From contig RECP01000052.1 of the NCBI GenBank assembly GCA_007693945.1, forward strand, positions 88,594 to 152,593: 64,000 nucleotides of DNA, given 5' to 3'. The notes beneath the pieces are model-generated. The model was not told the DNA's origin, ran no database searches, and worked only from the letters and a program-made list of their open reading frames with translations. The DNA comes from Spirochaetaceae bacterium. Lineage in GTDB: Bacteria; Spirochaetota; Spirochaetia; DSM-27196; PWMO01. Shown in pieces: positions 15,608 to 43,466 of the stretch. The position numbers and the translations under genes were made by a program. Position 1 is the first letter of the stretch, and each line of letters opens with the position of its first letter.

Positions 15608-16171
15608 TTGGCTGTAAAAGATTTACGAACGAACTCGATGATTCGCGTGCGTGAAGTTCGCCTGGTCGATGATGACGGTGAGCAGATGGGCATCGTTGCG
15701 ACCACTGAGGCGCTCAGGCTGGCCGAGGAACGAGGCCTGGATCTGGTTGAGGTTGCTCCGCAGGCACGGCCGCCGGTGTGCAAGCTGCTCGACTACGGCA
15801 AGTACAAGTTTGAACTCGAGAAGAAGAACCGCGAATCCAAGAAGAAGCAGAAACTCGTCAAGATGAAAGAGATTCGGATGCAGCCGAAGATCGAAGAACA
15901 CGACATGAAGTTCAAGGCCAAGCATATTCAGGAGTTTCTGGACGAGGGGAACAAGGTTAAGGTTACGATCCGGTTTCGCGGTAGAGAGCTGGCGCATACC
16001 GATCGCGGGCGCATGGTTCTCGACAGGATGCTCGGCATGCTGAACGAGGGTGTAGTGGTTGACCGTCCCCCCGCGATGGAGGGCAGGTTCATGTCGATGA
16101 TCCTGAGCCCCGCCAAGGGAGGAGCCCGCGATGCGGCTGCCAAGGACGGATCGGTAGAAGAAAACGCATAG
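15608..16171 (+). CDS. infC: Translation initiation factor IF-3
   Basis: It shows [27 protein letters not shown]...[15 protein letters not shown] and the [16 protein letters not shown] blocks. The start is TTG 15608, 4 nt after AGGAGG. No in-frame ATG or GTG is available. Confidence 0.9.
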
Positions 16172-16189
16172 GAAATACGAGGTAGTGTT

Positions 16190-16387
16190 ATGCCCAAGAT
16201 GAAGACCCGCAAGAGCGCAGCCAAGCGCTACAAGATGACGGCCGGCGGTAAGGTCCGCTATAAGAAACAGGGACTGCGCCACATTCTCACCAAGAAGAGC
16301 ACCAAGCGTAAACGTGGGTTGCGCAAGGCAGCGTATTTGAGCCCTGCCGAGACCGCCCGAGCCAAAGCGCTCTGCCCCTACGCGTAG
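16190..16387 (+). CDS. rpmI: 50S ribosomal protein L35
   Basis: [36 protein letters not shown]. Confidence 0.95.
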
Positions 16388-16435
16388 GTACGCCGACGCT
16401 GTTCCGGACAGGATTATCACCCAAGGAGATACACA

Positions 16436-18497: not shown

Positions 18498-18509
18498 GTT
18501 CCTGCCGCC

Positions 18510-18538
18510 TTGACTGCATACTCGCGGTAGCATACTAT
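18510..18538 (+). promoter_or_regulatory. Sigma70 promoter TTGACT-17-TACTAT for the PilZ-TPR operon
   Basis: The ATG at 18551 lies 12 nt after the -10. The intervening sequence is CGTAAATCACGG, so the start context reads CACGGATGG. Confidence 0.5.
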
Positions 18539-18550
18539 CGTAAATCACGG

Positions 18551-19384
18551 ATGGCAGTCACTACCAGCCAGCAAATCGCCGAATACTTCCAGCAGTTCCA
18601 GAACGTCGAGGTCACGTTCAACAGTGAGGTTACGCGTGCAATAGACCTGAACACCACTCAGGTGTTTCTCAAGTGCCTCGGTCGTCAGTGGCCGTGCATC
18701 GTCTACTCCAGCTCGCTGGCCGAAGCCAAGGTAATCGTCAACACCGGCGGTGAGTTCAATGAGACGGTTCGCAAAGCCAACAACCTGGTTTCGCTGCGCT
18801 ATTCGTTTCTGCAGCGCGACAAGAGCGGTCCGCTGGCGTTCTTTGTCGCGGCCCGAATCGGCGGCTTTGCGCCTTACGGCACGCAGCGCCCCGATCTTTC
18901 GTTTGTCACCCTGACGTACACGCAGCGGCCGCCGGATGATCTGATCGTAATCCTTGGGCAACTGCTCGAAGCCAACATCAACTCCACGCGGCGCCGCGAA
19001 GAAAGAATAACAATGACCGCCGACAACGCAGCCCGAGTAGGACTGCGCGCCAAGGAGACCATCGTCGAGATAGCCGGGGTTCCGCGCCACTGCATCATTC
19101 GCGACATCTCCTTTTCGGGCGCCAAGGTGATCGTGCTGGGCATCGCAAAGCTGCTCGTCGACAAACCGGCGCTACTGCATCTCGAGCTGGAGGATCCGTC
19201 CGAGAAACTGCGGATTCCCGGTACCGTGATACGTTTCGAAGCCGTCGAGGGGCGCTCGGATATTGCGGCGTTTGCAATCCGCTTTGATGACCAGAGGGTT
19301 CCGATGCGCTACAAACTCAGGATCACCGGTTACCTGAAGAGCACCAGGAAGAAGTCTGGAGGCTGCGATGCCGCAACCGGGTGA
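18551..19384 (+). CDS. Two-domain PilZ c-di-GMP receptor (PlzA / PilZN3-PilZ-like)
   Basis: The C-terminal domain has both PilZ signatures, RRREER (RxxxR) and DISFSGA (D/NxSxxG). The N-terminal half of about 150 aa is a degenerate PilZ-like barrel of the kind seen in spirochaete PlzA-type proteins. Confidence 0.75.
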   Translation: MAVTTSQQIAEYFQQFQNVEVTFNSEVTRAIDLNTTQVFLKCLGRQWPCIVYSSSLAEAKVIVNTGGEFNETVRKANNLVSLRYSFLQRDKSGPLAFFVAARIGGFAPYGTQRPDLSFVTLTYTQRPPDDLIVILGQLLEANINSTRRREERITMTADNAARVGLRAKETIVEIAGVPRHCIIRDISFSGAKVIVLGIAKLLVDKPALLHLELEDPSEKLRIPGTVIRFEAVEGRSDIAAFAIRFDDQRVPMRYKLRITGYLKSTRKKSGGCDAATG

Positions 19385-20474
19385 TCCGCTCAAGAGCATC
19401 GTGTACATCACCGTTCCACCGCACCTCGAGCGTAACCTTGGAGAGGTGCATCTTGATCCCAGGATCCCGCTGCCGGTAGAAACCACCGCAGGCTGGAGCA
19501 TGGAAGAGCTCAGCTGGGAACAGATCATCGCGGCGATGCTCAAGATACTCGCCAACCGCGTTGACCATGAGCACGCCGCGTACTACCGCAGGTTTGTCCT
19601 GGCCGCGCGGCCGACGATTGTCGATGATCTCTCCGAAACCGGAGTCCTCAAGGCACGTAATCGCGATTTCGAGATTGCCGACGAAATCTTCCGTGCGCTG
19701 TGCGGCCTGCTACCCTCGGACAGCCGCCCGCGGCTCAACCTGGCATTGCTGTGTGAACAGCGTGCCGACGCGTACGAGGCGCTCGACAAACCGCAGCTGG
19801 CCGCCCACCAGACCGAACGCGCTTTCGAGCTCTATAAGGAGCTGCTTGCGGCCGACAGTGTAGTGCCGGAGGTCTATCTGAACGCCGGGTACTTCTTCAT
19901 CAAGCAGCGCAACTACGGGCGGGCACGGTCCGCCTTTGAGGCGTTCCTGGAAGCCGGCAGCAGCGATGCGGAGAAATGCAATGAGGTCGAGCGCATCATT
20001 GGCGAGATCGACTCGCAGAACCTGCTCGACACGCTGTTCAAGGAAGCCTACGACTACATTCGGCTCGGCAGAGAAACCGAAGCAATCGAGCGTATCCGAG
20101 ACTTTCTGCAGAAGCGTCCCGATGTCTGGAACGCCTGGTTCCTGCTCGGCTGGGCGAATCGACGGCTGGAGAACTACGCGGAGGCCAAGGAAGCCTTTCT
20201 GCAGGCAGTTGAGACCGGATCGACGGAACCGGACACGTTGAACGAGCTGGCTATCTGCCGTATGGAACTTGGCGAACTCGATGAAAGCCGTGCAGATCTC
20301 GAGCGGGCGCTCCAGCGTGACCCGGAAAACGCCAAGATTATCTCCAACATGGGGATACTTTCGCTGAAGGAAGGCAAGCCGGCAGAGGCGGCCGCCTTTT
20401 TTCGTACCGTGCTGGAGTATGAACCCGAAGATCCCATCGCACTGAACTACCTCGAGATGCTCGAGCAGCAGTAG
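19368..20474 (+). CDS. TPR-repeat protein
   Basis: Multiple 34-residue repeats are present (AWFLLGWANRRLENYAEAKEAFLQAVE, ALQRDPENAKIISNMGILSLKEGKPAEAAAFFRTVLEYEPEDP). The ATG overlaps the end of the PilZ gene by 17 nt. Confidence 0.75.
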   Translation: MPQPGDPLKSIVYITVPPHLERNLGEVHLDPRIPLPVETTAGWSMEELSWEQIIAAMLKILANRVDHEHAAYYRRFVLAARPTIVDDLSETGVLKARNRDFEIADEIFRALCGLLPSDSRPRLNLALLCEQRADAYEALDKPQLAAHQTERAFELYKELLAADSVVPEVYLNAGYFFIKQRNYGRARSAFEAFLEAGSSDAEKCNEVERIIGEIDSQNLLDTLFKEAYDYIRLGRETEAIERIRDFLQKRPDVWNAWFLLGWANRRLENYAEAKEAFLQAVETGSTEPDTLNELAICRMELGELDESRADLERALQRDPENAKIISNMGILSLKEGKPAEAAAFFRTVLEYEPEDPIALNYLEMLEQQ

Positions 20475-20530
20475 CAGTGACGCCAGGCGAAAAAAAGCCG
20501 CGATTGCGGGCAATTTCACACACTTTGCGT

Positions 20531-20557
20531 TAAGCTTTAAGGTGCAGGTGCCGATAA
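20531..20557 (+). promoter_or_regulatory. Sigma28 (FliA) promoter TAAGCTTT-N11-GCCGATAA
   Basis: It matches 14 of 16 positions of the TAAAGTTT-N11-GCCGATAA consensus with exact 11-nt spacing. It lies 269 nt upstream of the flaB-1 ATG. Confidence 0.7.
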
Positions 20558-20752
20558 CAAATCCGGAGGAGACCGGCGTGCACCGGGTGACTCGGGTCAG
20601 CAGGGATGTCGCGTCATCTATATGATCGGTAACGCGGCACGATCCTTGAGTGCCATCCGGGAAAAACCTGCGACGGGTCGCCCGGGCCGGCTCACTACCA
20701 AACCGGCAGTGCAAGGAGGTGACAGAGAGACACGATAGATCTGCGATTTGTG

Positions 20753-20817
20753 TTTCAGGCACGGAGGCCTGAAACCACCCTCCTCGACAGGGAGTCGAGG
20801 CGAATTTTCACGGAGGA
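20753..20817 (+). promoter_or_regulatory. Candidate CsrA-binding sites in the flaB-1 leader
   Basis: Hairpin 1 is TTTCAGGC-ACGGAG-GCCTGAAA (20753..20774). Hairpin 2 is CCTCGAC-AGGGA-GTCGAGG (20782..20800). A third GGA lies in the SD, CACGGAGGA (20809..20817), 8 nt before ATG 20826. The octamer CACGGAGG occurs at both 20760 and 20809. Confidence 0.55.
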
Positions 20818-20825
20818 AGAACCAC

Positions 20826-21683
20826 ATGATCATCAATCACAACATGAGCGCAATGTTTGCGCAGCGTACTACTGGTCTGGTAGACCGACGGGTTCAGGGG
20901 AACATCGAGAAACTGTCGTCGGGCATGCGCATCAACCGCGCCGGTGACGACGCGTCCGGTCTGGCCGTATCCGAGAAGATGCGCAGTCAGATCCGCGGAC
21001 TCAACCAGGCCTCGCGCAACGCGTCCAACGGCATTTCGTTCATCCAGGCCACCGAAGGCTACCTGCAGGAAACCCAGGACATCTTGCAACGCATCCGCGA
21101 ACTCTCGGTTCAGTCAGCCAACGGGATCTACTCGTCTGAGGACCGAATGCAGATTCAGGTAGAGGTTTCGCAGCTGGTAGCGGAAGTGGACCGCATTGCG
21201 TCTCACGCCCAGTTCAACGGTATGAACATGCTGACCGGCCGCTTTGCCCGCGACACCGGCGAAAACGTGGTGACCGCCAGCATGTACTTCCACATCGGCG
21301 CCAACATGGACCAGACTATGAGGGTCTATATCGGCACGATGACCGCCCAGTCACTCGGTATTCGCGACGCCGCGCAGGAGATCATCAGCCTCGAGACCCC
21401 GGAGCTGGCCAACCAGGTCATCGGGATTGTCGATGGGGCGTTGATGCGCGTGAATCAGCAGCGTGCGGACCTCGGTGCGTATCAGAACCGCATGGAGCTG
21501 GCCGTCGAAGGTATCGACATTGCTGCAGAAAATCTGCAGGCCGCGGAATCCCTGATTCGCGATGTGAACATGGCTGCCGAAGTCGTCGACTTCGTGCGCA
21601 ACCAGATCCTGATGCAGTCGGGTACCGCAATGCTGGCCCAGGCAAACTTGCAGACTCAGACAGTGTTGCAATTGTTCGGATAG
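20826..21683 (+). CDS. flaB: Flagellar filament core flagellin FlaB, copy 1
   Basis: [14 protein letters not shown]..., [34 protein letters not shown], and the C-terminal [18 protein letters not shown]. The upstream extension from 20748 has no support. Confidence 0.95.
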
Positions 21684-21696
21684 CGCGCTATGATTG

Positions 21697-21743
21697 GCGA
21701 TGGTGGGGAGGTCTGAGCTTTCTCGCCATCGCTTTCGTTCTTT
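21697..21743 (+). terminator. Intrinsic terminator after flaB-1
   Basis: An imperfect hairpin of about 15 bp has arms at 21697..21711 and 18..32 (GCGATGG/CCATCGC core plus G:U-containing extension). It is followed by TTTCGTTCTTT. Confidence 0.5.
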
Positions 21744-21764
21744 GACAGCAATCCTCCTTGTCGG

Positions 21765-21793
21765 TTGACAGCAGTGCGACCGCCTGATATCCG
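21765..21793 (+). promoter_or_regulatory. Weak sigma70-like promoter TTGACA-17-TATCCG upstream of flaB-2
   Basis: The -35 is perfect and the -10 is poor. No sigma28 match was found. The palindrome ATCCGCGCGGAT (21789..21800) overlaps the -10. Confidence 0.3.
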
Positions 21794-21882
21794 CGCGGAT
21801 GTCAGAGTAGTCTCTCTGCTGCTTGCACAGGCCGGTTTGTGGCGCGCTCACAGGCCGTGCCGCCGCTCTCAGCCGGGACCGA

Positions 21883-21925
21883 GGGCCACGGAAGGCCCAC
21901 GGAAAAGGTACATACAAGGAGGGCC
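21883..21925 (+). promoter_or_regulatory. Candidate CsrA-binding sites in the flaB-2 leader
   Basis: The hairpin GGGCC-ACGGAA-GGCCC (21883..21898) is followed by ACGGAAAAGG and then the SD AAGGAGGG (21916..21923) before ATG 21927. GGCCC 21894..21898 can alternatively pair with GGGCC 21921..21925, which would occlude the SD. Confidence 0.5.
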
Positions 21926-21926
21926 T

Positions 21927-22787
21927 ATGATCATCAACCACAACACGAGTGCTGCTTTCGCCTCACGGACCCTGAACTTTCGCGGTGGAGAGATTCAGTC
22001 GAACATTGAGAAACTCTCCTCGGGAATGAGGATCAACCGTGCCGGCGACGACGCTTCCGGGCTCGCGGTTTCCGAGAAACTGCGCAGTCAAATTCGTGGG
22101 TTGAACCAGGCTGAGCGCAATATCCAGAACGCCGTTTCGTTCATTCAGACGACCGAAGGGTATCTGCAGGAAACTCAGGACATTCTGCACCGTATGCGCG
22201 AGCTTGCGGTACAGTCGGCTCACGGGATTTATACCCCCGAAGACCGCATGCAGATCCAGGTCGAGGTTTCGCAGCTCATTGCCGAGGTCAACCGAATTGC
22301 CTCACACGCACAGTTCAATAACCTGAACATGCTGACCGGGGCATTCGCTCGCGATGCGGTAACGGCAAACGGGGCCGGGATCACCTTCCAGATTGGTGCC
22401 AACATGGACCAGTCTGAGGTGGCCTACATCGGTACGATGACGGCTCAGGCACTCGGGCTGATGGACGCACAAAATGCGCAAGGCACACTGTCGATTTCGA
22501 CGCCGGAAGCTGCAAACCGCGCGATCGGGCTGGTCGATGCGGCGCTCACACAGGTTTCACGCCAACGTGCAGACCTGGGCGCCTATCAGAACCGCTTCGA
22601 GCTGGCGCGTGAAGGCGTTGCAATCGCTGCGGAAAACCTGCAGGCCGCAGAATCACTGATCCGTGATGTCGACATGGCATCCGAAGTGGTCAGCTTTGTG
22701 CGTAACCAGATTCTGGTGCAGTCGAACACTGCAATGCTGGCGCAGGCCAACACACAGCCCCAGTCGGTGCTGCAGCTGCTCGGCTAG
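21927..22787 (+). CDS. flaB: Flagellar filament core flagellin FlaB, copy 2
   Basis: [14 protein letters not shown]..., [33 protein letters not shown], and the C-terminal [18 protein letters not shown]. It is a close paralogue of copy 1. Confidence 0.95.
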
Positions 22788-22903
22788 ACACCCCTTGAGC
22801 GGGAGAGATCTCTGGACGTCATCTTTCCTGCAACAACGAATTCTTGGACGGTGACGGGGGAAGCGCGCTCCCTCGCACCTTCTTCTTACACGGAGGTAAG
22901 AAT

Positions 22904-23260
22904 ATGTCCATGGAGGTCAACAGAGTTTTCGGCGAGCCTCATACGGCGGAACACTACGTACTGCCGCAGCGCACTGCGGTGCGCGCGGCAGCCGCTAGTC
23001 GGCAGGACGCGATTCTGACCGCGTCTTCAACAAACCAGGCGGCGGATCTCGATACCGTACTGGCCGAGCTTCAGGGTGTATCGCGCATATTCGACCGCAG
23101 GCTGCAGTTCAGCGTGAATCGGGATCTCGATCAAGTGGTTGTGAAAGTCATTGACAAATCGACCGATAGAGTGATTAAGGAGATCCCGCCTGCGGAGCTG
23201 CAGCGGGTGCATTCCCGGATCCGCGAGGCTATAGGCCTGTTTGTAGACGAACGGATATAG
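22904..23260 (+). CDS. flaG: Flagellar protein FlaG
   Basis: The C-terminal block LQFSVNRDLDQVVVKVIDKSTDRVIKEIPPAELQ is the FlaG signature. Its SD context is CACGGAGG (22889..22896). It sits just upstream of fliD. Confidence 0.75.
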   Translation: MSMEVNRVFGEPHTAEHYVLPQRTAVRAAAASRQDAILTASSTNQAADLDTVLAELQGVSRIFDRRLQFSVNRDLDQVVVKVIDKSTDRVIKEIPPAELQRVHSRIREAIGLFVDERI

Positions 23261-23281
23261 CGCCTCGAGGGAGAGGACGCC

Positions 23282-25306
23282 TTGTCTGACATCAGTATTC
23301 CCGGCATCTCCGGTGGAGGCCGGTTCAACACCAGCGAGTTAGTCGACGACCTGATGAAGGTCGAGCGCATCCCGGTAACACGCATGGAGGAACGCGTCGA
23401 GCGGCTCCAGGACCAGCGTGTCATCTGGAACGACGTCAGCCGTGCGACCGCCGAGCTGCGCGACAGCGCACGCGCGCTGTACGGGTTCCAGAGTCCGTTC
23501 AATTCCCGCATTGCGCGCTCATCCAACGAATCGGTACTGACCGCCGAGGCGACGCGCGAGGCGCAGGAGATGACAAGCCGGATAGAGGTACGTCAGCTTG
23601 CCGGCCGCGACCATTTTCTCTCGCGCAGTCTCGACCGCGACACCGACGTGGCGCCCGGGACCTACGGCTTCCGCGTCGGCGAAGACGAGATTACGTTTAC
23701 CTTCCGCGGCGGCTCGCTGCGCGAGTTTTCTGATGCGGTCAACCGCAACGCCGGGGAACTGGTACGATCGCGCGTTGTGCACAATACCCGCGAGACTGCG
23801 GTCATAACCTTTGAAGCACAGCGAACGGGGGCCGAACAACGGCTTTCCTTCCTCGAGGATGCAGCCGATTTTGCGCTTTCAGCGGGTATCGTTGAACCCG
23901 GCCGCGACGCGCAGCGCGCGCTAAGCATAACCGATCAGACCATCGCGCGTTGGACACAGCCCCTCGACCGCCGCGCGCTGCAGGTCACCGACGGCACGCT
24001 GACCGTACGTCCCGGCGGGGAGCTGTCGCTGCCGGTACGTCCTTCGTTTGCCGTAGACGGCAACGTGATGCTGGAAATGGAAGTGCGCGTCACGGACCGC
24101 AGCCCCGAAGTACTGGCCCCTCCCCCACCGCCACCGGGACCCCGGATCCCCGAAGGTCCCGGCGTAACGCTGGAGGACATCACCGTCGAGGGCGCTCGCT
24201 CACGCGCGGTGTTGCCGGCTATCGAGACGCCCGAACCGCCTCAAATCATCGACGACCTGCGCTTTCTGTTTGCGCGCCAGGCCGGAACCTCGGTCCAGCT
24301 CCCGGAGTTGCGCGACACCCGCGAATTCCAGACGATCCGCATACCGCTGGCCGACTATGTCGATCAGATCGACGCCCTCGACATCCGCAACCGCAACAGT
24401 CATCGTGATCTCGAGATCCGTAACGTTCGTGTGTTCGACCCGGATGCACGCAACGATTTCCAGCCGATCAACGCGGTTGAAGTCGCCTCCGACAGCATCA
24501 TCGCGGTTGATGGTGTCGAGATCATCCGTGACAGCAACACCATCGACGACGTCATCGCCGGAACGACGCTCAATCTACACCAGGTGAGCCCTCAGCCGCT
24601 TTCGCTGGCCGTTGAGCCGGATCGCGACACAATCAAGGACAGCATTATCCGCTTTGCCGCCCAGTACAATCAGCTGATTCGCGATATCAACATTCTGACC
24701 CGTACCAACCCGGCACTGATCGAAGAGGTCGGCTATTTCTCCGATGAGGAGCGCGAGCGGGCGCGCGACCGCCTGGGAGCCTTACAGGGCGATACAACGC
24801 TCAATCAGCTGCGATCCCGCTTGCAGACCCTGATCATGAATCCCTACGAAACCCGCGCCGGCAGTGAGCTCAGTCTGCTGGCCCAGATCGGGATATCGAC
24901 CAATGTGTCAGGGTTTTCCGGCAGTATGGACGCGTCTCGCATGCGCGGTTATCTCGAGATCGATGAGACCCGACTCGATAACGCCATCCGTAACAATCTG
25001 CAGGCCGTCCGCGACCTGTTCGGCTACGATACCGACGGCGATTTTGCGGTTGATTCCGGAGTAGCCTACCAGGTGGAGCGCAACCTCGCGCCCTACGTGC
25101 AGTCCGGTGGCGTCTTTGCCATGCGCCGACAGGGCCTCGACGTTCGCGTCGAGCGGACCGAGACCGATATCGAGACCTACAACCGGCGTCTGGACCGCCG
25201 TGAGCAGCAGTTGCGCGTGGAGTTTGGCCGTATGGAGGGCGCGTTGCAGATGCTCGAAGACCACCAGCAGGCGCTCGACAGCCTCAGACCGCAGACCCAG
25301 CGATAG
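23282..25306 (+). CDS. fliD: Flagellar filament capping protein FliD
   Basis: The N-terminus is ISIPGISGG..FNTSELVDDLMKVERIPV. The C-terminal region reads LNQLRSRLQ...GISTN...LEIDETRLDNAI. The start is TTG 23282, after GGAGAGGA. Confidence 0.85.
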   Translation: MSDISIPGISGGGRFNTSELVDDLMKVERIPVTRMEERVERLQDQRVIWNDVSRATAELRDSARALYGFQSPFNSRIARSSNESVLTAEATREAQEMTSRIEVRQLAGRDHFLSRSLDRDTDVAPGTYGFRVGEDEITFTFRGGSLREFSDAVNRNAGELVRSRVVHNTRETAVITFEAQRTGAEQRLSFLEDAADFALSAGIVEPGRDAQRALSITDQTIARWTQPLDRRALQVTDGTLTVRPGGELSLPVRPSFAVDGNVMLEMEVRVTDRSPEVLAPPPPPPGPRIPEGPGVTLEDITVEGARSRAVLPAIETPEPPQIIDDLRFLFARQAGTSVQLPELRDTREFQTIRIPLADYVDQIDALDIRNRNSHRDLEIRNVRVFDPDARNDFQPINAVEVASDSIIAVDGVEIIRDSNTIDDVIAGTTLNLHQVSPQPLSLAVEPDRDTIKDSIIRFAAQYNQLIRDINILTRTNPALIEEVGYFSDEERERARDRLGALQGDTTLNQLRSRLQTLIMNPYETRAGSELSLLAQIGISTNVSGFSGSMDASRMRGYLEIDETRLDNAIRNNLQAVRDLFGYDTDGDFAVDSGVAYQVERNLAPYVQSGGVFAMRRQGLDVRVERTETDIETYNRRLDRREQQLRVEFGRMEGALQMLEDHQQALDSLRPQTQR

Positions 25307-25383
25307 TCCGCATCGTGGGCAGCGCGTGAGACTTCCGGTTTGCCTCGACACCGCAATGACCGATATTATAAAGGGGTAGACCA

Positions 25384-26304
25384 TTGCAGATTCTCGTGAA
25401 CAACCAGCAGATCGATGTAACCCTCGAACAGGAACGCACTCTGGCCGACGTGGTGGCGGCCATCAACAGCTGGGTCGTGGGCAACGGCCAGGCGATCACC
25501 ACGCTGCGGATCGACGGTACCGAGTGTACGCTCGACCGTCCGCAGACCTGGGGCGACCGGCCCCTTGAGACCATCGGTGAGGTGCATGTCGAGACCAGTG
25601 CGCAGTGGCAGCTGATTCTGGCACATCTGGAACTGGTGCTGCAGTTTGTGCGTTCCTGGGAAACCGCTCTCGGCAACGGCGACCGGCCGGCAATCGACTC
25701 GCTGGTGGCTCAACAACAGGACCTGGCACGCCACCTGCAGGAACACGTTGAACTCATATTCCTCGAACTGCCCCAGACCCCATTGCACGACGTTTTCTCC
25801 ACCACCGGCGATCCGTCGGCCATGACCTCACCGCCGGCCGGCAGTGAGGTGCTCGGCCGCCAGCTGAATGCGCTGGCGGCTCTGATCGAGCAGCGCGTTA
25901 ACGAGATACGCCATCCGGGCAGAGAGGCCGCCGCGACGGCCGGGTTGATCTCGGCGCTGCTCAACGATGTGCGCGAAGTGTCGGTGCTGCTGCAGACCGG
26001 CAAGGATCAGCAGGCAATGGGCAATGTCGTGCGCTTCAGCGAGCTGGTGGAGAAGCTGCTGCGGATTGTGCCGCACCTGGCGCGTGAGGATGAGCAGTTT
26101 CGCGCACGCATCGAGCGCGGCGGGGACCTCGACACCATCACTACCGCCCTCAACAGCACGCTTCGCGAACTGGTAGACGCCCTGGACGTGCGGGATTCCG
26201 TTTTGATCGGCGATCTGTTAGAATACGAGATCGCCTCCAGGATTGAGGAGCTGATAGGCGTGATTCCGACCGGCCCCGGCAACGCTGCCGGACACGGCCA
26301 ATAG
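25384..26304 (+). CDS. Hypothetical protein in the fliS/fliT position
   Basis: The 306-aa ORF starts at TTG, 8 nt after AGGGG. The N-terminal ~70 aa (MQILVNNQQIDVTLEQERTLADVVAAINSW...) resemble a ThiS/MoaD-like beta-grasp opening. The rest is helical. I could not recognise a FliS signature. Confidence 0.5.
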   Translation: MQILVNNQQIDVTLEQERTLADVVAAINSWVVGNGQAITTLRIDGTECTLDRPQTWGDRPLETIGEVHVETSAQWQLILAHLELVLQFVRSWETALGNGDRPAIDSLVAQQQDLARHLQEHVELIFLELPQTPLHDVFSTTGDPSAMTSPPAGSEVLGRQLNALAALIEQRVNEIRHPGREAAATAGLISALLNDVREVSVLLQTGKDQQAMGNVVRFSELVEKLLRIVPHLAREDEQFRARIERGGDLDTITTALNSTLRELVDALDVRDSVLIGDLLEYEIASRIEELIGVIPTGPGNAAGHGQ

Positions 26305-26319
26305 TCTCGGGAGTACGCG

Positions 26320-27405
26320 ATGGTACTGTTGCAGACCCCTCCGTTCACGTTCTTCACCGCCCCCGACCCCGCAACCAATCGCATAGCTGTCGCGGTCTTT
26401 GCAGCAATTGTGGTGGCTGTCGTGGCAGCCTCGATAGCCAGCCGGCGTCGAACCCCCGGCAGCCGCTCCGCACGCGGACTGCGGCGTACGGCGCGTCGCA
26501 TGGGCCTGGACCGCAATCATATCGAGATGCTCTACGAGATGGTACGAACGCTCAGGCCCCAGAATTCAATGCGCCTGCTCAGCGACCCGGACTTCCTGAC
26601 CGCCGCGGTCAGGCGCATGGTGCGCCGTATTGACGGGTCGGCCATCGGCACAGCCGAAAAAGAGGCCCGCAAGGCGCTGGTCTTCCAGCTCAAGCAGCGG
26701 GTAACGGTGGCTCAGACCGGCCACAGTTCGGTCTCATCCACACGACAGCTTCAGGTCGGGCGCGAAATCCGTATAAGCACTGATGGCCACACATGGCTCG
26801 AATCGGCAGTCAAATCCAACGCCCAGGGGAGCTTTGCGATCGAGGTGCCGTACGACAGCCGCGGCCGCGATGTTCTGCTGGATCGCGGTACGACCGTAAT
26901 GGTGGCCTTCACTCTCGACAGTGACGGAAAGCTGTTTCGGCTCAAGACCAGAGTCGCCGGGATCACCCGCTCGCGGCGCGGTTCCAGCCTGCTGCTGGCA
27001 CACAGCGACAAGATCGATCAGAGTCAGAAACGCCGCTTTCCGCGACGGGAGTTCGACCGCCCGGCGATGTTCTGGCCGATAGACGTTGTAACCGTTGGAA
27101 CCGGACGCAAAGCAAAGAAGCAGGCGGTTATCAACAAATACCGCCGCCATCTGGGACAGATTGAAGAGATCTCGGCCGGCGGCTGCAGCATCCGGTCGTC
27201 CACTCCCCTGGCAAGCGGGACATTGCTGAAGATCGAGTTTGAGACCGTGAACCGCGAGCGGCTGGCGGTCTTCGGCAAGGTACGCGCGATCGATCGGGTT
27301 CCCAGCCGCTTTGGAATCATGCACGTGATGTTCACCAGGGTAACGCGCGCCAATCTCAACCGCATTCAGGCCTTCGTCTACGGCGTGGACAGCGGCCGTG
27401 ACTGA
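26320..27405 (+). CDS. Membrane-anchored PilZ-domain protein (YcgR-like architecture)
   Basis: GGGAG lies 6 nt upstream of the start. It has one N-terminal TM span (IAVAVFAAIVVAVVAASIA), a YcgR-N-like middle region, and a C-terminal PilZ domain with RRFPRR (RxxxR) and EISAGGCSI (xxSxxG). Confidence 0.7.
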   Translation: MVLLQTPPFTFFTAPDPATNRIAVAVFAAIVVAVVAASIASRRRTPGSRSARGLRRTARRMGLDRNHIEMLYEMVRTLRPQNSMRLLSDPDFLTAAVRRMVRRIDGSAIGTAEKEARKALVFQLKQRVTVAQTGHSSVSSTRQLQVGREIRISTDGHTWLESAVKSNAQGSFAIEVPYDSRGRDVLLDRGTTVMVAFTLDSDGKLFRLKTRVAGITRSRRGSSLLLAHSDKIDQSQKRRFPRREFDRPAMFWPIDVVTVGTGRKAKKQAVINKYRRHLGQIEEISAGGCSIRSSTPLASGTLLKIEFETVNRERLAVFGKVRAIDRVPSRFGIMHVMFTRVTRANLNRIQAFVYGVDSGRD

Positions 27406-27428
27406 TACGGCCGATCTCGGAGTCCGGT

Positions 27429-27692
27429 GTGACGGTTGTACAGATCGATGACATCAGCCGCCGTGATTCGCTGATCCACTACCGCCGGCAGTATACGGCC
27501 ACCGCCGTGGTGAGGCACGTCGCCTCGGACGGGCAATCGGTTCCAATCGCGTTCACGATCGAGCAGTCTGCAACCGAAACACCGGCGGTGTCGGTGGACA
27601 TCCGCGGGCCACTCGATTATCCTGTGATTCCGGCAACGCACGTGTTGCGCGAGTACATTCTCAAGCTGGATTTGCAAGGAAAGCTCCCCTGA
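27429..27692 (+). CDS. Hypothetical small protein (87 aa)
   Basis: It starts at GTG, 7 nt after GGAG. It is packed tightly between the PilZ gene and tsaE. No family was recognised. Confidence 0.4.
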   Translation: MTVVQIDDISRRDSLIHYRRQYTATAVVRHVASDGQSVPIAFTIEQSATETPAVSVDIRGPLDYPVIPATHVLREYILKLDLQGKLP

Positions 27693-27697
27693 ACCTG

Positions 27698-28150
27698 ATG
27701 TGCCTGAACCAGTCGCGCCCGACACGCCTCATCTCGGACTCTGCGGCGCGCACGCGCGCCATTGCCGCTGAACTCGCCGAGCGGTTGCAGCCCGGCGACG
27801 TCGTGGCGCTACGCGGACCGATGGGCGCCGGCAAGACCGTGTTTGTCAAAGGCATCGCCGATGCATTTGGCGTGCGTGAACCGGTGACCAGCGCCACCTT
27901 CACCATCATCACCGAGTACGAGGGTCGAATCCCGCTGGTGCACGCCGATCTCTACCGCCTGCATGGCAGCGCTGAAGCCGCCGAAACCGGCCTGCAGGAC
28001 TACCTCCGGGACTCCTCGGTGGTCGTTGTAATCGAGTGGGCCGAACGAGCGTCCGACCTCTACCCGTCGGATACGATCTGGATAAGCATTTCGGTTTCCG
28101 AGGACGGTCGGCGCGCGATAGCAATCGACCGGACGGAGCAGCAGCCGTGA
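27698..28150 (+). CDS. tsaE: tRNA t6A37 biosynthesis ATPase TsaE
   Basis: It has the Walker A motif GPMGAGKTVFVKGIA, plus HADLYRL and VVVIEWAE. Confidence 0.85.
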   Translation: MCLNQSRPTRLISDSAARTRAIAAELAERLQPGDVVALRGPMGAGKTVFVKGIADAFGVREPVTSATFTIITEYEGRIPLVHADLYRLHGSAEAAETGLQDYLRDSSVVVVIEWAERASDLYPSDTIWISISVSEDGRRAIAIDRTEQQP

Positions 28151-28821
28151 ACGCCGTCGCCATCGACACAGCAACCGACGTTCTGTCGCTGGCAGTGAGC
28201 ACTGCCGCTCAACGGTACTACTACCAGGCCGAAGCCGGGCTTCGCCACGGCCAGCAGATGATGCCGGTGCTGGCGTGGCTGCTGCAACAGGCGTCATTGC
28301 CTCGAGAGGCTATCGAACTTGTGGTCTGCAGTGACGGTCCCGGTTCGTTTACCGGCTTGCGCATCGGCATGGCGTGCGCCAAGGGTCTGGCTGCCGCAAC
28401 CGGTGCTCGCCTGGTAGCCGTGCCGACCCTCGACGCGCTGGCCTGGCCGCTGCGCGTCTGGCCGCAGCCCGTTGCGGTCGCAATTGATGCCCGCAAGAAC
28501 CGTTTCTATGTAGCACTGTTTCACGGCCCGCACAAGCTGACGCAAGACCTGGATATCACCCCGGCGGCCTTCGAGAAGCTGCTTGAACAGCACGCCGCCG
28601 ATGGGCCCGTGCTGCTCACCGGACCGGGAGCCGCGCAACTGCACGGCCGGCTCAACGCACCGCAACGGACACAGCGTGATACACACTGGCGCGCGGGCGC
28701 CGCGGCCGGTCTGCTGGAGCTTGGACGTCTGAAAGCTGAAGACGGACAGTATGCCGCCGAATCTCACGGTCCGAACTACGTACGTGTCAGCGACGCGGAG
28801 ATCGGCGTGCTACGCCAGTAA
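28147..28821 (+). CDS. tsaB: tRNA t6A37 biosynthesis protein TsaB
   Basis: VNAVAIDTATDVLSLAV..., GPGSFTGLRIG. GTG 28147 overlaps the tsaE stop (GTGA). Confidence 0.8.
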   Translation: MNAVAIDTATDVLSLAVSTAAQRYYYQAEAGLRHGQQMMPVLAWLLQQASLPREAIELVVCSDGPGSFTGLRIGMACAKGLAAATGARLVAVPTLDALAWPLRVWPQPVAVAIDARKNRFYVALFHGPHKLTQDLDITPAAFEKLLEQHAADGPVLLTGPGAAQLHGRLNAPQRTQRDTHWRAGAAAGLLELGRLKAEDGQYAAESHGPNYVRVSDAEIGVLRQ

Positions 28822-28880
28822 CGCAGACGGCGGTTACCGCTGCTCCGGCCACCCATGATCATTTTGAAGCGCACCTGATC

Positions 28881-29177
28881 TCAGTCGTCGCTTTGTCTGT
28901 TCTGTTCTTCTCCGGCGTCGCGGGCGGCGGTTCGGCCGGAATCGGCCGATCCACTCCCACCGAACAGCGCGTCGAGCTCGGGCGGTATCGCGCGTGCGGC
29001 GGCGGCCTGACGGTTTTCTTCCAGAATCGCCTCGTAGACCTCACGGCGGTAGACCTTGACGTGGCTGGGCGCGTTTATGCCGAGTTTCACCTGGTCACCG
29101 CGAATGTCGATGATCGATACTTCGATCTCGCCCCCGATGATGATACTCTCGTTCATTTTGCGCGCCAGAATCAGCAT
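28881..29177 (-). CDS. csrA: Carbon storage regulator CsrA (FliW-partnered type, long C-terminal tail)
   Basis: [51 protein letters not shown]. The ATG overlaps the fliW stop by 1 nt (TGATG). The 98-aa product includes a low-complexity tail of about 40 aa. Confidence 0.9.
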
Positions 29178-29611
29178 CAGTCCGTCCTTGTCATTTCGGA
29201 AGCGATTTCGTGTTTGGTCTTCCAACGGGGATCAAGCGAGATCGATTGCTTGCCGATGCGCTGCGCGCGGTTGATCACCAGCGGTCCCTGTAGATTGGCG
29301 GTCACTTCTCCCTCGGCCGGGATGGTGAGAATCGCGAAGACCAGAATATCGTCCTCTTCGGGTGAACCGATCTGTTCCAGGTCCTCGGCGGCGATGTCGA
29401 GTACGTAGTCGGAGCGGAACAGGTACGGGTTGACCAGAATAAAGGCCACTTCACGGTCATGCGTGCTCTGCAGCCAGTAGAACGGTGGTCGATGCGCGTC
29501 GAGCAAACCGAACTCGGTGTGTTGCTCGAACCCGTAGAGTCCCTCGGGAAAGCGCACCAGCTGTTTCTCCGCCAGTTCCAGCGGGCCGTATGCCTTGGTA
29601 TCTATGGTCAT
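29177..29611 (-). CDS. fliW: Flagellar assembly factor FliW
   Basis: FPEGLYGFE..., PFYWLQS, FILVNPY, and [11 protein letters not shown] are FliW-family blocks. Confidence 0.9.
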
Positions 29612-29613
29612 GA

Positions 29614-30861
29614 CTACCTCAGGAAGTCCAGCAGCGTCGGCTGTATCACGCGTGCCGCGGTTGCCAGAGCAGCCCGATGGGTGTATTCGAGCATCCGCAG
29701 ATTAGTGATTGCTTCGGCCATGTCGATATCGACCTCGTTGGAGTTGAGTTTGCCGATCTGCGGTATCTCGAATTCGGTTCGCAGGTAGGCGTGCTCCAGG
29801 CGCGCGTCTTTGGCTCCCAGGCGTCCCAGATTGGAAAGCAGGTTGTCGAGCGCGCTGTCGATTCCCCGCAGCGCACCGCCCCCGACGTCAAAACTGTCCC
29901 CGTTGTATAGTGCGTTGCGCAGAGTAATGATCGAATCAAACAGGGATCCGCCGAAGACCGTGGCGGTGGGGGCCACGTTGCCCGGAGGTGTTATATCAGA
30001 ACTGACCACGATGCCGAGATCCTGCAGCACCGCGCTGCCCTCACCATCCTGCACCCAGATCTGGTGCGGTGAGGTGGTCTCGAGCACCAGCGAGTTCTGT
30101 ACCGGATCAAGCCGGGCGCGTACGGCGGCCGGGGAATCGTTGATCTTGCTTATGATCGAGAAGACGTTGTCGCCGGCCGTCAGTTCAATCGGCACGTCGT
30201 CGATGTAGATCACCCCGTCTTGTGCTACGGTGTAGCCGTCGGAGTCGACCGAGGAATAGATCTGCTGATTCTCGGCCCAGAACACCTGATTGCCGGGAAA
30301 ATTGAGTTCAATATAGGAGTTCTCGGCGATTTCCGTCATTCGTTCGCCTATGTCGCCCACGTAGTCGACCGTGGTGATCACCGCTCCGGATGCACCTTCG
30401 ACGTTGCCTTCAATGACGCGAAACGGCACCGTCTTGCTCTTCTTGCCTGCAAACAGCATCGTTCCGTCGGCGTTGCGCCCGTTGGCAATCTCGACAAATT
30501 CGCGCAACAGCTCATCGATCTCGTTGGCCATGTGCCGCAAGTCGTCGCCCGAATAAGTGCCGGTTGCACCCTGGATGGCCAGCTCGCGTATGCGCTGCAA
30601 CATATCCACACCCTGTTTCATATAACCTTCCGCAACCCGGTAGTTGTCCTGCGCGTAACGGATATTGTCGGCAAACCGGTTCAGCCGCGCCAGATAGGAC
30701 TGGTAGCGCGTCGAGTGCGCCGCCGCCAGCGGTGCATCGCGCAGGTTCTGGATGCGCGACTGTGCCGCCATCTGGTTCTGTGCCTGGTTCATCAGGTGCT
30801 CACGGCGGCGAGCGTGATACTGCATGTTGTCGTTGGGCAGATTGGTACTTATGCGAAACAT
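29614..30861 (-). CDS. flgL: Flagellar hook-associated protein 3 FlgL
   Basis: MFRISTNLPNDNMQYH..., a flagellin-like N-terminus, and the C-terminal ITNLRMLEYTHRAALATAARVIQPTLLDFLR. Confidence 0.85.
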   Translation of the reverse strand: MFRISTNLPNDNMQYHARRREHLMNQAQNQMAAQSRIQNLRDAPLAAAHSTRYQSYLARLNRFADNIRYAQDNYRVAEGYMKQGVDMLQRIRELAIQGATGTYSGDDLRHMANEIDELLREFVEIANGRNADGTMLFAGKKSKTVPFRVIEGNVEGASGAVITTVDYVGDIGERMTEIAENSYIELNFPGNQVFWAENQQIYSSVDSDGYTVAQDGVIYIDDVPIELTAGDNVFSIISKINDSPAAVRARLDPVQNSLVLETTSPHQIWVQDGEGSAVLQDLGIVVSSDITPPGNVAPTATVFGGSLFDSIITLRNALYNGDSFDVGGGALRGIDSALDNLLSNLGRLGAKDARLEHAYLRTEFEIPQIGKLNSNEVDIDMAEAITNLRMLEYTHRAALATAARVIQPTLLDFLR

Positions 30862-30864
30862 GGC

Positions 30865-32739
30865 CTAAACTCCCAGCCGGTTGATGATTGTGTCGAGCAT
30901 GCGGTCGACGTAGGTGATGAAACGCGCCGCGGCGTTATAGCCGTGTTGAAACTTGATCATCTGCGCCAGTTCTTCGTCCACGTTAACCCCGCTGATGGAC
31001 TCGCGCGTGTCGCGCAGGTCCTTCATGATTGCCTCCTGGGTGCGCAGCGCCAGCTGCGCTTCCTCGCCTTTGAGTCCTATCTCGGCCACCGTATCGGCGA
31101 AGTAGTCGTCAAAGGTCGCAATCTGCCCGACCATCACCGGGCGGTTGCGCAAACCGGCGATCTCCAGCGCTGCGTCACCGTCTCCAATAACTCCAGGCTG
31201 TCCCGGCCGACCGAAGGCTGCCGCGATGCGCGCCGGCTCGTTGCGGATCGAAGGATTCATGTCGATCCACGCCGACGGGTTCTGCAGCGGAGCGACCGCA
31301 AAACGGCCATCGGCACGCAGCAGGTCGACGGCGTCGGCCTGATCCCAGCTATAGGCGCCGTCGGCTCCGGAGGCTGCCAGAACGCCCGCGTACCCGACCA
31401 GGAACTGTCCGGAGTCCTCGACGTGACGTATTACAAAGTCCGGGTGATCGATCTGCGCCGCCGGGGTACCCTTTAGCATCAGATGGCCTCCGCGGTCGAG
31501 CCGTGCCACCACTTCAGCGCCCGAGTTGTTAATACGCGCGATGAGATCGTTGACGGTATCGGTCGGAAAGTACTCGATATCGAGCGTGCCTTGAGAAACC
31601 GCGAGGGTCAGCGTCCCCTGCAGCCCGATCTGCTCCTCTGAGCGCAACGCGTTGGCGCCACTGATGCGGAACAGGTATGTCGAATCGAAGGCCCCGTCAC
31701 CGGTACGGTCGTAGTTTCCGAGGGCGTTCAGCACCGCGGGATACTCCACGAAGAAGTCGAGACCGGTTTCACCGGTAAGGCCGTAGCCGTCACGGTGAAT
31801 CTCATTCACCAGATCGACGAAATTGATTGTCATGTTATCGAGCTTCTGTACCTCGCGACGCACGTCCACGTCGCGCAGTTCAAGCACCGAAGCCAGTGTT
31901 CCGCCGCGAAAGTCGGCAATTTCCCCGGAGTGTGACCAGACCACATTGGAGTAACCATCGTTCTCGGGCACCGGAACAGCCTCAAACGGTCGAGCGATGC
32001 GGCCCTGGACGATGTGAAAACCGCTGGTGTAGATGCTGAACTCATCGGGATTACGGTCGTCGATGGTGATGTTTATCTTTGAGGAGAGTCGGTTGATCAA
32101 AAGGTCGCGGCGATCATACAGATCGTTTGGCTCGTCACCGGCGGCTTGCGACTTGACGATCTCGTTGTTCAGCGCCGCGATCTCGCGAATGATCTCGTTA
32201 ACCTGAAAGACACCGGCACGGACTTCGTCGTTGAGCATGGTGCGAACGCGGTCCAGGCTGTGATAACGCAGCTGAATTCCCTCCATCAGGGCTTCGCCGC
32301 GCTCTGTAACCGCGCGCCTGGCGGTCATCTGGTCCGGAAAGATGGACAGCTCCTGCCAGCTGTCCCAGAAGCGGTCCATCAGATTGCGCACCGAGTGCTC
32401 GGTCGGTTCGTTGTAGACCTGTTCGAGCATCATTACGTACTTGTCGCGCATCTGCCAGTAGCCTTCCTCATGCGCTTGAGCTATTATGCGTCCTTCCAGC
32501 AATCGGTCGCGCACGCGTTCGATTCGCGCCACCTCCACTCCCTGCCCGATCTGGCCGGGGCGTTCCGCACGGTTGAGCTGGGGACGGTCGATGGCGTGAA
32601 ACGCGCGCAGCTCCACCCGCTGGCGGCTGTATCCCTCGGTGGAAGCATTACTCAGGTTGTGACCGGCGGTGTTGAGGGCGATCTGGTGCGCAAACAGACC
32701 CCGCTTGCCGATCTCGATACCCGAAAAGGTTGATTGCAT
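30865..32739 (-). CDS. flgK: Flagellar hook-associated protein 1 FlgK
   Basis: MQSTFSGIEIGKRGLFAHQIALNTAGHNLSNASTEGYSRQRV and the C-terminal VNVDEELAQMIKFQHGYNAAARFI. ATG 32739 follows GGAGGGGG. The extension to 32898 overlaps flgN and was rejected. Confidence 0.9.
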   Translation of the reverse strand: MQSTFSGIEIGKRGLFAHQIALNTAGHNLSNASTEGYSRQRVELRAFHAIDRPQLNRAERPGQIGQGVEVARIERVRDRLLEGRIIAQAHEEGYWQMRDKYVMMLEQVYNEPTEHSVRNLMDRFWDSWQELSIFPDQMTARRAVTERGEALMEGIQLRYHSLDRVRTMLNDEVRAGVFQVNEIIREIAALNNEIVKSQAAGDEPNDLYDRRDLLINRLSSKINITIDDRNPDEFSIYTSGFHIVQGRIARPFEAVPVPENDGYSNVVWSHSGEIADFRGGTLASVLELRDVDVRREVQKLDNMTINFVDLVNEIHRDGYGLTGETGLDFFVEYPAVLNALGNYDRTGDGAFDSTYLFRISGANALRSEEQIGLQGTLTLAVSQGTLDIEYFPTDTVNDLIARINNSGAEVVARLDRGGHLMLKGTPAAQIDHPDFVIRHVEDSGQFLVGYAGVLAASGADGAYSWDQADAVDLLRADGRFAVAPLQNPSAWIDMNPSIRNEPARIAAAFGRPGQPGVIGDGDAALEIAGLRNRPVMVGQIATFDDYFADTVAEIGLKGEEAQLALRTQEAIMKDLRDTRESISGVNVDEELAQMIKFQHGYNAAARFITYVDRMLDTIINRLGV

Positions 32740-32761
32740 TCGTTTCCCCCTCCAGCAACGC

Positions 32762-33265
32762 TTACAGGTGGCGGTCGACCACCACCGCGTGCGCTCCGGT
32801 GGCTCCGGCGTTTCCATCCTTGCGGTAAATCGTACCCCGATGCGCCGGCGAGCACTCCTCGAGAAAGGAGCGCATGGTGGCGGTGCTCGACGCAACATAG
32901 GCGTCGATACCGCCGGTCAGGCTGCGGATGCGCATCACCGCCACTTTCAGACTGCGGTACAGCGCGCGCAAGCGCCCGGCGGACTGCTCGTCAAGCCGCG
33001 AAATCAACTCCGAGAAGCTGGCCGTATCATTGAGACCCAGCGTCAAGCTCAGCGTGCTGAAACAGCGCTCCCGGTCCCCTTCGGCCTGCTGGATCTCTTC
33101 CGACAGCGCTGCCATCTGGTCTATCACCTTCTGCAACTCCTGCCAGTCGCGCTCAAGCAAGTGGCTCTGCAGGATGCGCTCACGTTCAGCCAAAGCACCC
33201 AGCAACTGAATCTCCTGCACGAGTATTCTGCTCAATGACTCAAGCTTGTCTTCTACGCTTTTCAT
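32762..33265 (-). CDS. flgN: FlgN-like flagellar export chaperone
   Basis: The 167-aa helical protein begins LSRILVQEIQLLGALAERERILQSHLLERDWQELQKV. It sits directly upstream of flgK as in other flagellar loci. Confidence 0.55.
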   Translation of the reverse strand: MKSVEDKLESLSRILVQEIQLLGALAERERILQSHLLERDWQELQKVIDQMAALSEEIQQAEGDRERCFSTLSLTLGLNDTASFSELISRLDEQSAGRLRALYRSLKVAVMRIRSLTGGIDAYVASSTATMRSFLEECSPAHRGTIYRKDGNAGATGAHAVVVDRHL

Positions 33266-43423: not shown

Positions 43424-43466
43424 GTGAAACTCCCCATAAAAGCATACCCCCAAAACGGTCCGCAGG

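Follow-up and report, generated by a model that had tools for sequence, protein, structure and literature searches.

A TP0873-family gene and a predicted membrane-anchored PilZ gene follow fliD in the filament cluster of free-living Spirochaetales

The PilZ proteins YcgR of Escherichia coli and Salmonella, MotI (DgrA) of Bacillus subtilis, and PlzD (VCA0042) of Vibrio cholerae bind cyclic di-GMP (c-di-GMP) and act as brakes or clutches of the flagellum. To our knowledge, c-di-GMP control of spirochaete periplasmic flagella is still little understood: only effectors of the PlzA/TDE0214 type have been studied, and we know of no YcgR-like brake that has been demonstrated. Here we describe three co-oriented open reading frames (ORFs) of 306, 361, and 87 amino acids (aa) on the plus strand of a 64,000-nt stretch of contig RECP01000052.1 (61% GC; hereafter, the window), which comes from a soda-lake spirochaete of the family Spirochaetaceae (assembly GCA_007693945.1). 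They lie between fliD (stop at 25306) and tsaE (ATG at 27698). Free-living Spirochaetales have a conserved late-flagellar (filament) cluster, whose distal genes are these three ORFs and in which fliD is followed by a member of the TP0873 family and then by a PilZ protein with a predicted membrane anchor. The PilZ protein is best grouped with the c-di-GMP flagellar effectors and does not require a new category.

The architecture closest to this PilZ protein has been described in silico by Galperin and Chou for TDE1318 of Treponema denticola, a "PilZN4"-PilZ protein with a pentahelical N-terminal subdomain, of which the hydrophobic first helix is a putative anchor, a six-stranded xPilZ domain that lacks a C-terminal helix, and a canonical PilZ domain (10.1101/814665). 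The same authors noted this architecture in spirochaetes, Aquificae, and Fibrobacteres, and reported that the PilZN3-PilZ type is the only one in T. pallidum and Borrelia (10.1101/814665). TDE1318 was detected in the proteome of wild-type T. denticola but not after deletion of either motB or flgE (PMC6930189). FlaA, FlaB, FliL, and MotA decreased in the same mutants, so that the loss of TDE1318 parallels that of other flagellar proteins (PMC6930189, Table 3). Also associated with the motor is FlgX of Campylobacter jejuni, a tetrameric PilZ-family protein that stabilizes the stator ring (PMC11725899). The filament chaperones of spirochaetes are known as well: in Borrelia burgdorferi the cheY1 operon includes fliS (bb0550) and fliT (bb0549), and the FliT of this species binds FliD (PMC12327847), while the FliS of T. 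denticola is TDE0119 (PMC6930189).

The gene layout proposed by an earlier sequence-only reading of the window was confirmed with respect to coordinates, spacing, and translation signals. The gaps between the 306- and 361-aa ORFs, the 361- and 87-aa ORFs, and the 87-aa ORF and tsaE are 15, 23, and 5 nt, respectively; each of the three ORFs is preceded at 6 nt by a purine run resembling a Shine-Dalgarno sequence (AGGGG, GGGAG, and GGAG, in gene order), and all three display the coding-type GC1/GC2/GC3 pattern of the genome. The positions of these and neighboring features are listed in Table 1.

The 361-aa product was assigned over residues 237-355 to the PilZ family by Pfam (PF07238; E value 2.7e-11; score 44.1 bits, threshold 22.5), and the RRFPRR and EISAGG motifs of the earlier reading are both present. 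Its AlphaFold2 (AF2) model, with a mean predicted local distance difference test score (pLDDT) of 82 and a disordered N-terminal tail, contains one transmembrane (TM) helix and a four-helix subdomain, which together form a five-helix N-terminal unit, followed by two beta-barrels, the second with a C-terminal helix (barrel at 242-353, helix H343-353). A Foldseek search with the two-barrel region returned MotI/DgrA (5vx6, 7e-12), PlzD/VCA0042 (2rde, 7e-11), and YcgR (5y6f, 4e-9), along with MrkH and PP4397, and the alignments to 5vx6, 2rde, 5y6f, and 3kyf extend over both domains (213-248 columns). The first barrel alone matches the YcgR-N domain 5y6h at 5e-3, and PF12945 is precomputed for five of the PilZ homologues, so that the YcgR-N-like middle and the single TM helix claimed from sequence are both borne out by the model and the structural matches. 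Homologues of this protein carry names such as "flagellar brake protein" or "YcgR" at NCBI/JGI.

The residues predicted to bind c-di-GMP are conserved in the family. The linker motif RxxxR reads R238-R-F-P-R242 in the window protein, with R238 kept in 76 of 77 sequences and R242 in all 77, and S285, G287, and G288 of the second motif are likewise kept in 77/77. The c-di-GMP-responsive flagellar role suggested by the sequence-only reading is plausible. Of 76 homologues, 75 have a hydrophobic segment; at locus L071, the PilZ homologue has no clear membrane helix under the start codon that was chosen. Lysine and arginine number a median of 8 in the 25 residues after the TM helix and 1 in the tail before it, a skew seen in 76/76 sequences. 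This positive charge after the helix predicts an N-out/C-in topology with both barrels cytoplasmic, and in the 361-aa protein as modeled the helical subdomain and the xPilZ-PilZ pair thus lie against the inner membrane on its cytoplasmic side. The tail on the other side is short and conserved in part, with L4 kept in 62 and Q5 in 67 of 77 sequences.

The 306-aa protein carries two Pfam domains, PF27299 (PF27299.1, TP0873_N) and PF26154 (PF26154.2, DUF8042), which are precomputed on a public protein of 100% identity and on all 120 homologues listed. A word-indexed search retrieved 247 homologues, and an exhaustive profile search retrieved 2477 cluster representatives with E<=1e-3, of which 412 have E<=1e-30. 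The public annotation of this gene is 302 aa, with the start four codons later at GTG 25396; we prefer TTG 25384 because the N-terminus of the family reads MxIxIN... and AGGGG stands 6 nt before the TTG. Proteins of the family are acidic (isoelectric point [pI] 4.1-5.4) and have no signal peptide.

The AF2 model of the 306-aa protein is confident (pLDDT 90.9; predicted TM-score [pTM] 0.85). Residues 1-73 (pLDDT 91-97) follow the order b-b-a-b-b-short helix-b, which is the beta-grasp topology, and the remainder is helical, as the sequence-only reading had it. The ThiS/MoaD-like opening proposed there thus holds for the fold and fails for the sequence: no ThiS match was found by Pfam in the window protein or in 78 family members, and we reject ThiS/MoaD membership. 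Moreover, the beta-grasp domain is N-terminal and runs on into a helical region of 230 residues, so that the sequence has no free C-terminal Gly-Gly. A weak Foldseek match of this domain is to the ubiquitin-like N-domain of doublecortin. Twelve columns are invariant in 78 sequences (Q204, G206, D208, A211, A266, D271, G276, D277, L278, E280, Y281, and E282), concentrated in SVLLQTGKD (about 25981-26007) and DSVLIGDLLEYEI (about 26194-26232).

Searches for more distant relatives of the 306-aa protein yielded little. Foldseek of the model against the Protein Data Bank (PDB) found nothing below E=0.06; matches to EfeO/EfeM and PhoU (E 0.06-0.3, TM-score 0.13-0.27) were dismissed as noise, and the further top matches are vinculin/catenin and designed bundles. 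A PDB sequence profile search returned designed helical proteins only, and a Pfam Flagellin_IN match (0.045) was also considered noise. No kinship was found between the helical region of this protein and that of the PilZ protein.

Conservation of gene order was examined by scanning one genome per GTDB species, of which 183 encode a relative of the 306-aa protein; synteny was analyzed in the best 80 of these 183, which are Spirochaetales, Spirochaetaceae, or Sediminispirochaeta-type metagenome-assembled genomes, and neighbors were identified by tblastn with the window proteins. The gene for the 306-aa homologue directly follows fliD in 77 of the 78 assessable loci, with a median of 17 nt from the fliD stop to the gene start, and a homologue of the 361-aa PilZ protein is encoded directly 3' of the TP0873-like gene in every one of 76 loci. 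Further 3', tsaE is found in 74/75 loci. The order also holds in a complete genome of 4.8 Mb in which the 306-aa protein is just 29% identical and the small ORF is missing. The recurrence of the fliD, 306-aa, and PilZ gene order is beyond chance, and the linkage to fliD, for which the sequence-only reading proposed a test in related genomes, is very wide. Two loci depart from the pattern: L064 has a gap of ~450 nt between fliD and the TP0873-like gene together with a very divergent PilZ protein (24% identity), and L079 is without tsaE on the 3' side.

The TP0873-like and PilZ genes are spaced more closely still. The stop of the TP0873-like gene overlaps the start of the PilZ gene by 4 nt in 34 of the 76 loci, and the median spacing is about 1 nt. 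Such 4-nt overlaps are a classic signature of translational coupling, and the two genes are accordingly predicted from their sequences to be translationally coupled across the relatives. The full cluster order is plzA-like, TPR, flaB, flaB, flaG, fliD, TP0873-like, TM-PilZ, (87-aa ORF), tsaE, and tsaB. The plzA-like gene, which the earlier reading had missed, encodes a PilZ protein of the PlzA type, and with the TM-PilZ gene after fliD the filament locus is thus bracketed by two PilZ proteins. A PlzA-type gene was also found 5' of flaB in five of the related loci that extend far enough, and together with the TPR gene in three others. Homologues of the TPR protein occupy the same position in 35 related loci and may represent a further conserved member of the filament cluster.

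We tentatively favor, at somewhat less than even odds, the interpretation that the PilZ protein, tethered to the membrane and expressed late, is a c-di-GMP brake or clutch whose target is the stator or the rotor of the periplasmic flagellum, and that the TP0873-like protein is its partner and/or associates with FliD. On a rise in c-di-GMP, the ligand would be bound by the linker and the PilZ site, the mode known from YcgR and MotI, and the tethered protein would then engage the motor, either at the cytoplasmic domain of the stator protein MotA or at the rotor. Such engagement would slow or disengage the periplasmic-flagellum motor by means of a tethered brake or clutch made together with the late flagellar proteins. 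A parallel exists in E. coli, where ycgR is a member of the late flagellar regulon. The acidic TP0873-like protein would most likely pair with the very basic PilZ protein as a stoichiometric partner or an adaptor, and/or serve as a factor associated with FliD. This interpretation agrees with the opposite charges of the two proteins and with the fact that characterized flagellar PilZ proteins (MotI; FlgX, PMC11725899) act on the stator or the rotor. It is further favored by the synteny and overlaps of the genes, by the fold, conserved motif residues, and charge pattern of the PilZ protein, and by the lack of a terminator between flaG and tsaB. That TDE1318 is missing when motB is deleted would be consistent with a protein associated with the stator, as FlgX is.

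Several points weigh against the tethered brake. The c-di-GMP binding, partners, and localization of these proteins are all inferred, and gene order alone cannot separate a motor target from a target in export or the cap. At position 283, where the [D/N]hSxxG motif starts, 64 of 77 sequences have D, 12 have E, and 1 has N, and the window protein (E283-I-S-A-G-G) is among those with E. The AF2 model of the 361-aa protein agrees point by point with the description of TDE1318, an equivalence by architecture only, and the loss of TDE1318 from the mutants is suggestive, because its abundance is low and near the detection limit. According to 10.1101/814665, T. pallidum, after whose gene TP0873_N is named, has only PilZN3-PilZ proteins, which indicates that the TP0873-like protein can exist without a TM-PilZ partner and argues for a primary role tied to fliD and not to PilZ. 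Finally, this interpretation does not account for why the acidic motifs of the 306-aa protein are so very strongly conserved.

The T. pallidum case is central to an alternative in which the TP0873-like protein is a factor dedicated to FliD, for cap stability, timing, or regulation, and is independent of PilZ, the PilZ gene being an operon companion in this clade. TP0872 is FliD in T. pallidum (PMC11387709), and the Pfam family is named for the product of the adjacent locus tag, TP0873, so that the same adjacency to fliD is implied there; this gene order is taken from naming and locus numbering, which detracts from the argument. With T. pallidum reported to have the PilZN3-PilZ type only (10.1101/814665), the linkage to fliD seems to outlast that to PilZ. 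The coupling to the PilZ gene in the 76 assessable genomes, with its 4-nt overlaps and median of ~1 nt, is nevertheless tighter than that to fliD, and we regard a role independent of PilZ as unlikely. A search of the accessible literature on TP0873, TP0874, BB0149, BB0150, DUF8042, PF27299, and PF26154 found nothing.

The sequence-only reading had placed the three genes in the slot of fliS and fliT and proposed a spirochaete-specific, c-di-GMP-responsive module for the chaperoning of flagellin or FliD, type III export, or the assembly of cap and filament, which would supplement or replace FliS/FliT. The near-universal position right after fliD suits such a module, as does the cytoplasmic, acidic, and mostly helical nature of the 306-aa protein, which is shared by export chaperones, and the membrane anchor could put the PilZ protein near the export gate. 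The export chaperones FlgN, FliT, and FliS dock on FlhA via a conserved tyrosine, and the invariant tyrosine in the C-terminal acidic motif of the 306-aa family offers a lead in this direction. No FliS was detected by Pfam among ~38 plausible ORFs of the window, a subset of its ORFs, in line with the absence of fliS noted earlier. With FliS and FliT encoded elsewhere in spirochaetes, however, as the B. burgdorferi and T. denticola genes cited above indicate, the position after fliD is no vacated fliS/fliT slot, and the lack of FliS in the window is what would be expected for the phylum.

The comparison with known chaperones was also negative. The window 306-aa protein has no Pfam match to FliS, FliT, or FlgN at E<=1, which agrees with the earlier failure to see a FliS signature in it. 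Pfam searches with 78 family members gave one FliS match at 0.03 and two FlgN matches at >=0.009, sub-threshold among 86 noise families, and no significant FliT match, and hhalign against the FlgN of the window gave a probability of 0.2%. FliS, FliT, and FlgN are not among the top Foldseek matches of the 306-aa model, and the small antiparallel helical-bundle fold of the chaperones was not recovered. We thus reject the 306-aa protein as a homologue of FliS, FliT, or FlgN on the Pfam, PDB profile, Foldseek, and hhalign results. Its ~300 aa and beta-grasp domain contrast with chaperones of 120-150 aa, and every structural relative of the PilZ part in the Foldseek results is a motor or transcription effector, the closest (MotI, YcgR, and PlzD) acting on motors. 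The PilZ architecture, being present in Aquificae and Fibrobacteres, is not specific to spirochaetes either. A chaperoning or export module is therefore improbable in our assessment; replacement of FliS/FliT is not supported, and the genes most likely tune the motor instead.

The conserved order could also persist without a shared function, with the PilZ protein controlling a membrane process other than the flagellum (exopolysaccharide synthesis, transport, or chemoreceptors) and its gene hitch-hiking in a stable operon. The genes tsaE-tsaB, which have no flagellar role, are likewise fixed in this order, and the same strand runs on into them in 74/75 loci, so that conserved order is no proof of shared function by itself; PilZ domains also regulate the membrane synthases of cellulose and alginate, and BcsA and Alg44 are among the Foldseek matches. 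The full two-barrel match is nonetheless to MotI, YcgR, and PlzD and not to PilZ proteins of the synthase type, the PilZ gene is predicted to be translationally coupled to a gene that tracks fliD, TDE1318 is lost in flagellar mutants (PMC6930189), and only flagellar genes stand on both sides (flaB, flaG, and fliD; csrA, fliW, flgL, flgK, and flgN). These observations render hitch-hiking improbable as well.

A more speculative proposal, which we hold to be quite improbable, is that the TP0873-like protein joins the tethered PilZ protein in a complex gated by c-di-GMP and peculiar to periplasmic flagella, by which motor output or the export of late substrates would be made to depend on how far the cap and filament (FliD) are assembled. 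The complex would operate via the conserved acidic LLQTGKD/GDLLEYE surface and the short conserved periplasmic PilZ tail that reaches the collar or stator region. If true, it would constitute a new class of flagellar regulator and not a simple variant of YcgR.

Roughly half of the genomes encode the 87-aa protein, a putative accessory: a homologous ORF stands between the PilZ gene and tsaE in 36/75 loci, and in the loci without it the gap between the two genes is mostly <200 nt. A word-indexed protein search made it appear an orphan (2 matches only), and no match was found in Pfam, NCBIfam, or the PDB. The homologues are 83-89 aa throughout and share the motifs YRR/N, F-LE, DYPLxP, and LKxYI..LD..GKLP. 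An origin as a PilZ fragment was rejected (hhalign, 0.4%).

Regulatory signals within the cluster are few. The lone strong terminator-like hairpin, with a 17-bp stem and a T-rich tail, is located after the first flaB (21696-21733, plus strand), which suggests that this gene is transcribed alone; no terminator-like site was detectable on the plus strand between flaG and tsaB, and flaG, fliD, and the three ORFs are without such a separating site. In the gap between fliD and the 306-aa gene, one sigma-70-like promoter match (25340-25369) was found, not above the expectation from shuffled sequence. Rfam, which covers riboswitches and other RNAs, gave 0 matches in the window at the gathering score and 0 at E<=1 in 18000-29500.

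Table 1. Positions in the window of the three ORFs, their predicted domains, and neighboring genes
Feature	Position	Strand	Evidence or remark
PlzA-type PilZN3-PilZ gene, predicted second c-di-GMP receptor of the locus	18467-19384	+	Pfam PilZN3 3e-58, PilZ 5e-9
TPR-repeat protein gene, directly 5' of flaB	19368-20474	+	
First flaB	20748-21683	+	
Second flaB	21765-22787	+	
flaG	22844-23260	+	
fliD, filament cap	23282-25306	+	Pfam FliD_N 5e-21, FliD_C 2e-51; NCBIfam PRK06664 3e-180
306-aa TP0873-family gene, TTG start	25384-26304	+	Product cytoplasmic, acidic, pI 4.6
Beta-grasp-like N-terminal domain, aa 1-73	25384-25602	+	AF2 E2-5, H20-33, E36-43, E46-48, H53-56, E66-73
All-helical region, aa 74-292	25603-26259	+	AF2 helices; carries two family-invariant motifs
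361-aa YcgR/MotI-like PilZ gene, product predicted to be membrane-anchored	26320-27405	+	pI 11.5; Pfam PilZ, AF2, Foldseek
Single TM helix, aa 17-43	26368-26448	+	AF2; short conserved tail before it (LLQ, aa 3-5), predicted periplasmic
Predicted cytoplasmic helical subdomain, aa 47-133	26458-26718	+	AF2 helices 47-60, 65-78, 90-106, 111-133
xPilZ (YcgR-N/PilZNR-like) beta-barrel, aa 149-235	26764-27024	+	AF2 strands, no terminal helix; Foldseek
Canonical PilZ domain, aa 237-355	27028-27384	+	RxxxR 27031-27045, E-I-S-A-G-G 27166-27183
87-aa conserved small ORF	27429-27692	+	Coding-type GC3; homologous ORFs in relatives
tsaE-tsaB, distal same-strand genes	27698-28821	+	Pfam TsaE 3e-38; NCBIfam TsaB 6e-40
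tsaE	27698-28150	+	
csrA, fliW, flgL, flgK, flgN, 3' of tsaB		-	In this order

The genes tsaE-tsaB, which are housekeeping genes of tRNA modification (N6-threonylcarbamoyladenosine, t6A), stand between two flagellar blocks and are convergent with csrA-fliW-flgL-flgK-flgN (27698-33265), an arrangement kept in 74/75 related genomes. The longest tsaB ORF (28036-28821, plus strand) shares 115 nt with tsaE; as its NCBIfam TsaB match starts at residue 42, the true start is probably near 28150, abutting the tsaE stop. About 10 kb 5' of the flaB genes, an ORF for the filament sheath protein FlaA was found on the minus strand (10596-11327; Pfam FlaA 5e-20). Elsewhere in the window, ORFs with coding-type GC3 and without a Pfam match (E<=0.01 or E<=0.001) are located at 427-1005 and 1198-1887 and, on the minus strand, at 12486-13205, 15030-15518, 15623-16420, 43010-43531, 43467-44072, and 57144-57758.

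The description of the genes as uncharacterized, made in the sequence-only reading, holds for their function and not for their standing in databases. The 306-aa and PilZ proteins belong to catalogued families that are functionally unstudied, and the PilZ architecture has already been described in silico (TDE1318; 10.1101/814665). Pfam assigns the 306-aa protein to TP0873_N plus DUF8042 and leaves the 87-aa protein without a match. We found no report of the fixed arrangement of fliD, TP0873-like, and TM-PilZ genes, its translational coupling, the 87-aa companion, or the bracketing by two PilZ proteins, and a linkage of the TDE1318 type to fliD or to the TP0873 family is not reported in 10.1101/814665. 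Across a large clade of spirochaetes, nearly all genomes examined have the coupled pair immediately after fliD. The locus therefore offers a concrete candidate, open to testing, for how c-di-GMP may control the motor of spirochaetes, and its linkage gives a first functional context to TP0873, which in the syphilis agent is a conserved gene annotated as hypothetical. A direct experimental route is provided by T. denticola, a genetically tractable species with TDE1318.

Compared with the systems named at the outset, the 306-aa protein is likened to the TP0873_N plus DUF8042 family by the presence of both domains (via the 100%-identical entry) and by the position of its gene next to fliD. It resembles FliS, FliT, and FlgN in being cytoplasmic, acidic, and helical, and these chaperones are encoded after fliD in many other bacteria; it differs from them in its size, which is twice theirs, in its N-terminal beta-grasp domain, in the absence of significant sequence or fold similarity, and in motifs much more strongly conserved than is usual for these chaperones. 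ComFB, a c-di-NMP receptor near flagellar genes in T. denticola, was considered and rejected as unrelated, as its architecture differs and T. pallidum lacks it. FlgX is likewise of the PilZ family and is associated with a complex, high-torque motor and its stators; it is, however, an atypical tetrameric PilZ protein without an xPilZ partner domain or membrane anchor, and it is not among the top Foldseek matches of the 361-aa model.

The closest counterparts of the 361-aa protein are YcgR, MotI, and PlzD, with which it shares a PilZN/PilZNR-type xPilZ domain followed by a canonical PilZ domain that ends in a C-terminal helix, the RxxxR linker, the SxxG motif, and a gene encoded with flagellar genes. 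The likeness is one of fold and motifs, as identity to the solved proteins is just 10-16%. In contrast to these proteins, the 361-aa protein has ~135 extra N-terminal residues, predicted to form an extracytoplasmic tail, a membrane helix, and a four-helix cytoplasmic subdomain, a pI of 11.5, and a gene that is predicted to be translationally coupled to that of a dedicated, putative acidic partner. With 361 aa, a TM helix, and a helical subdomain set against the soluble YcgR type of ~210-250 aa, the protein is best described as one that would work like YcgR without being a plain member of that group.

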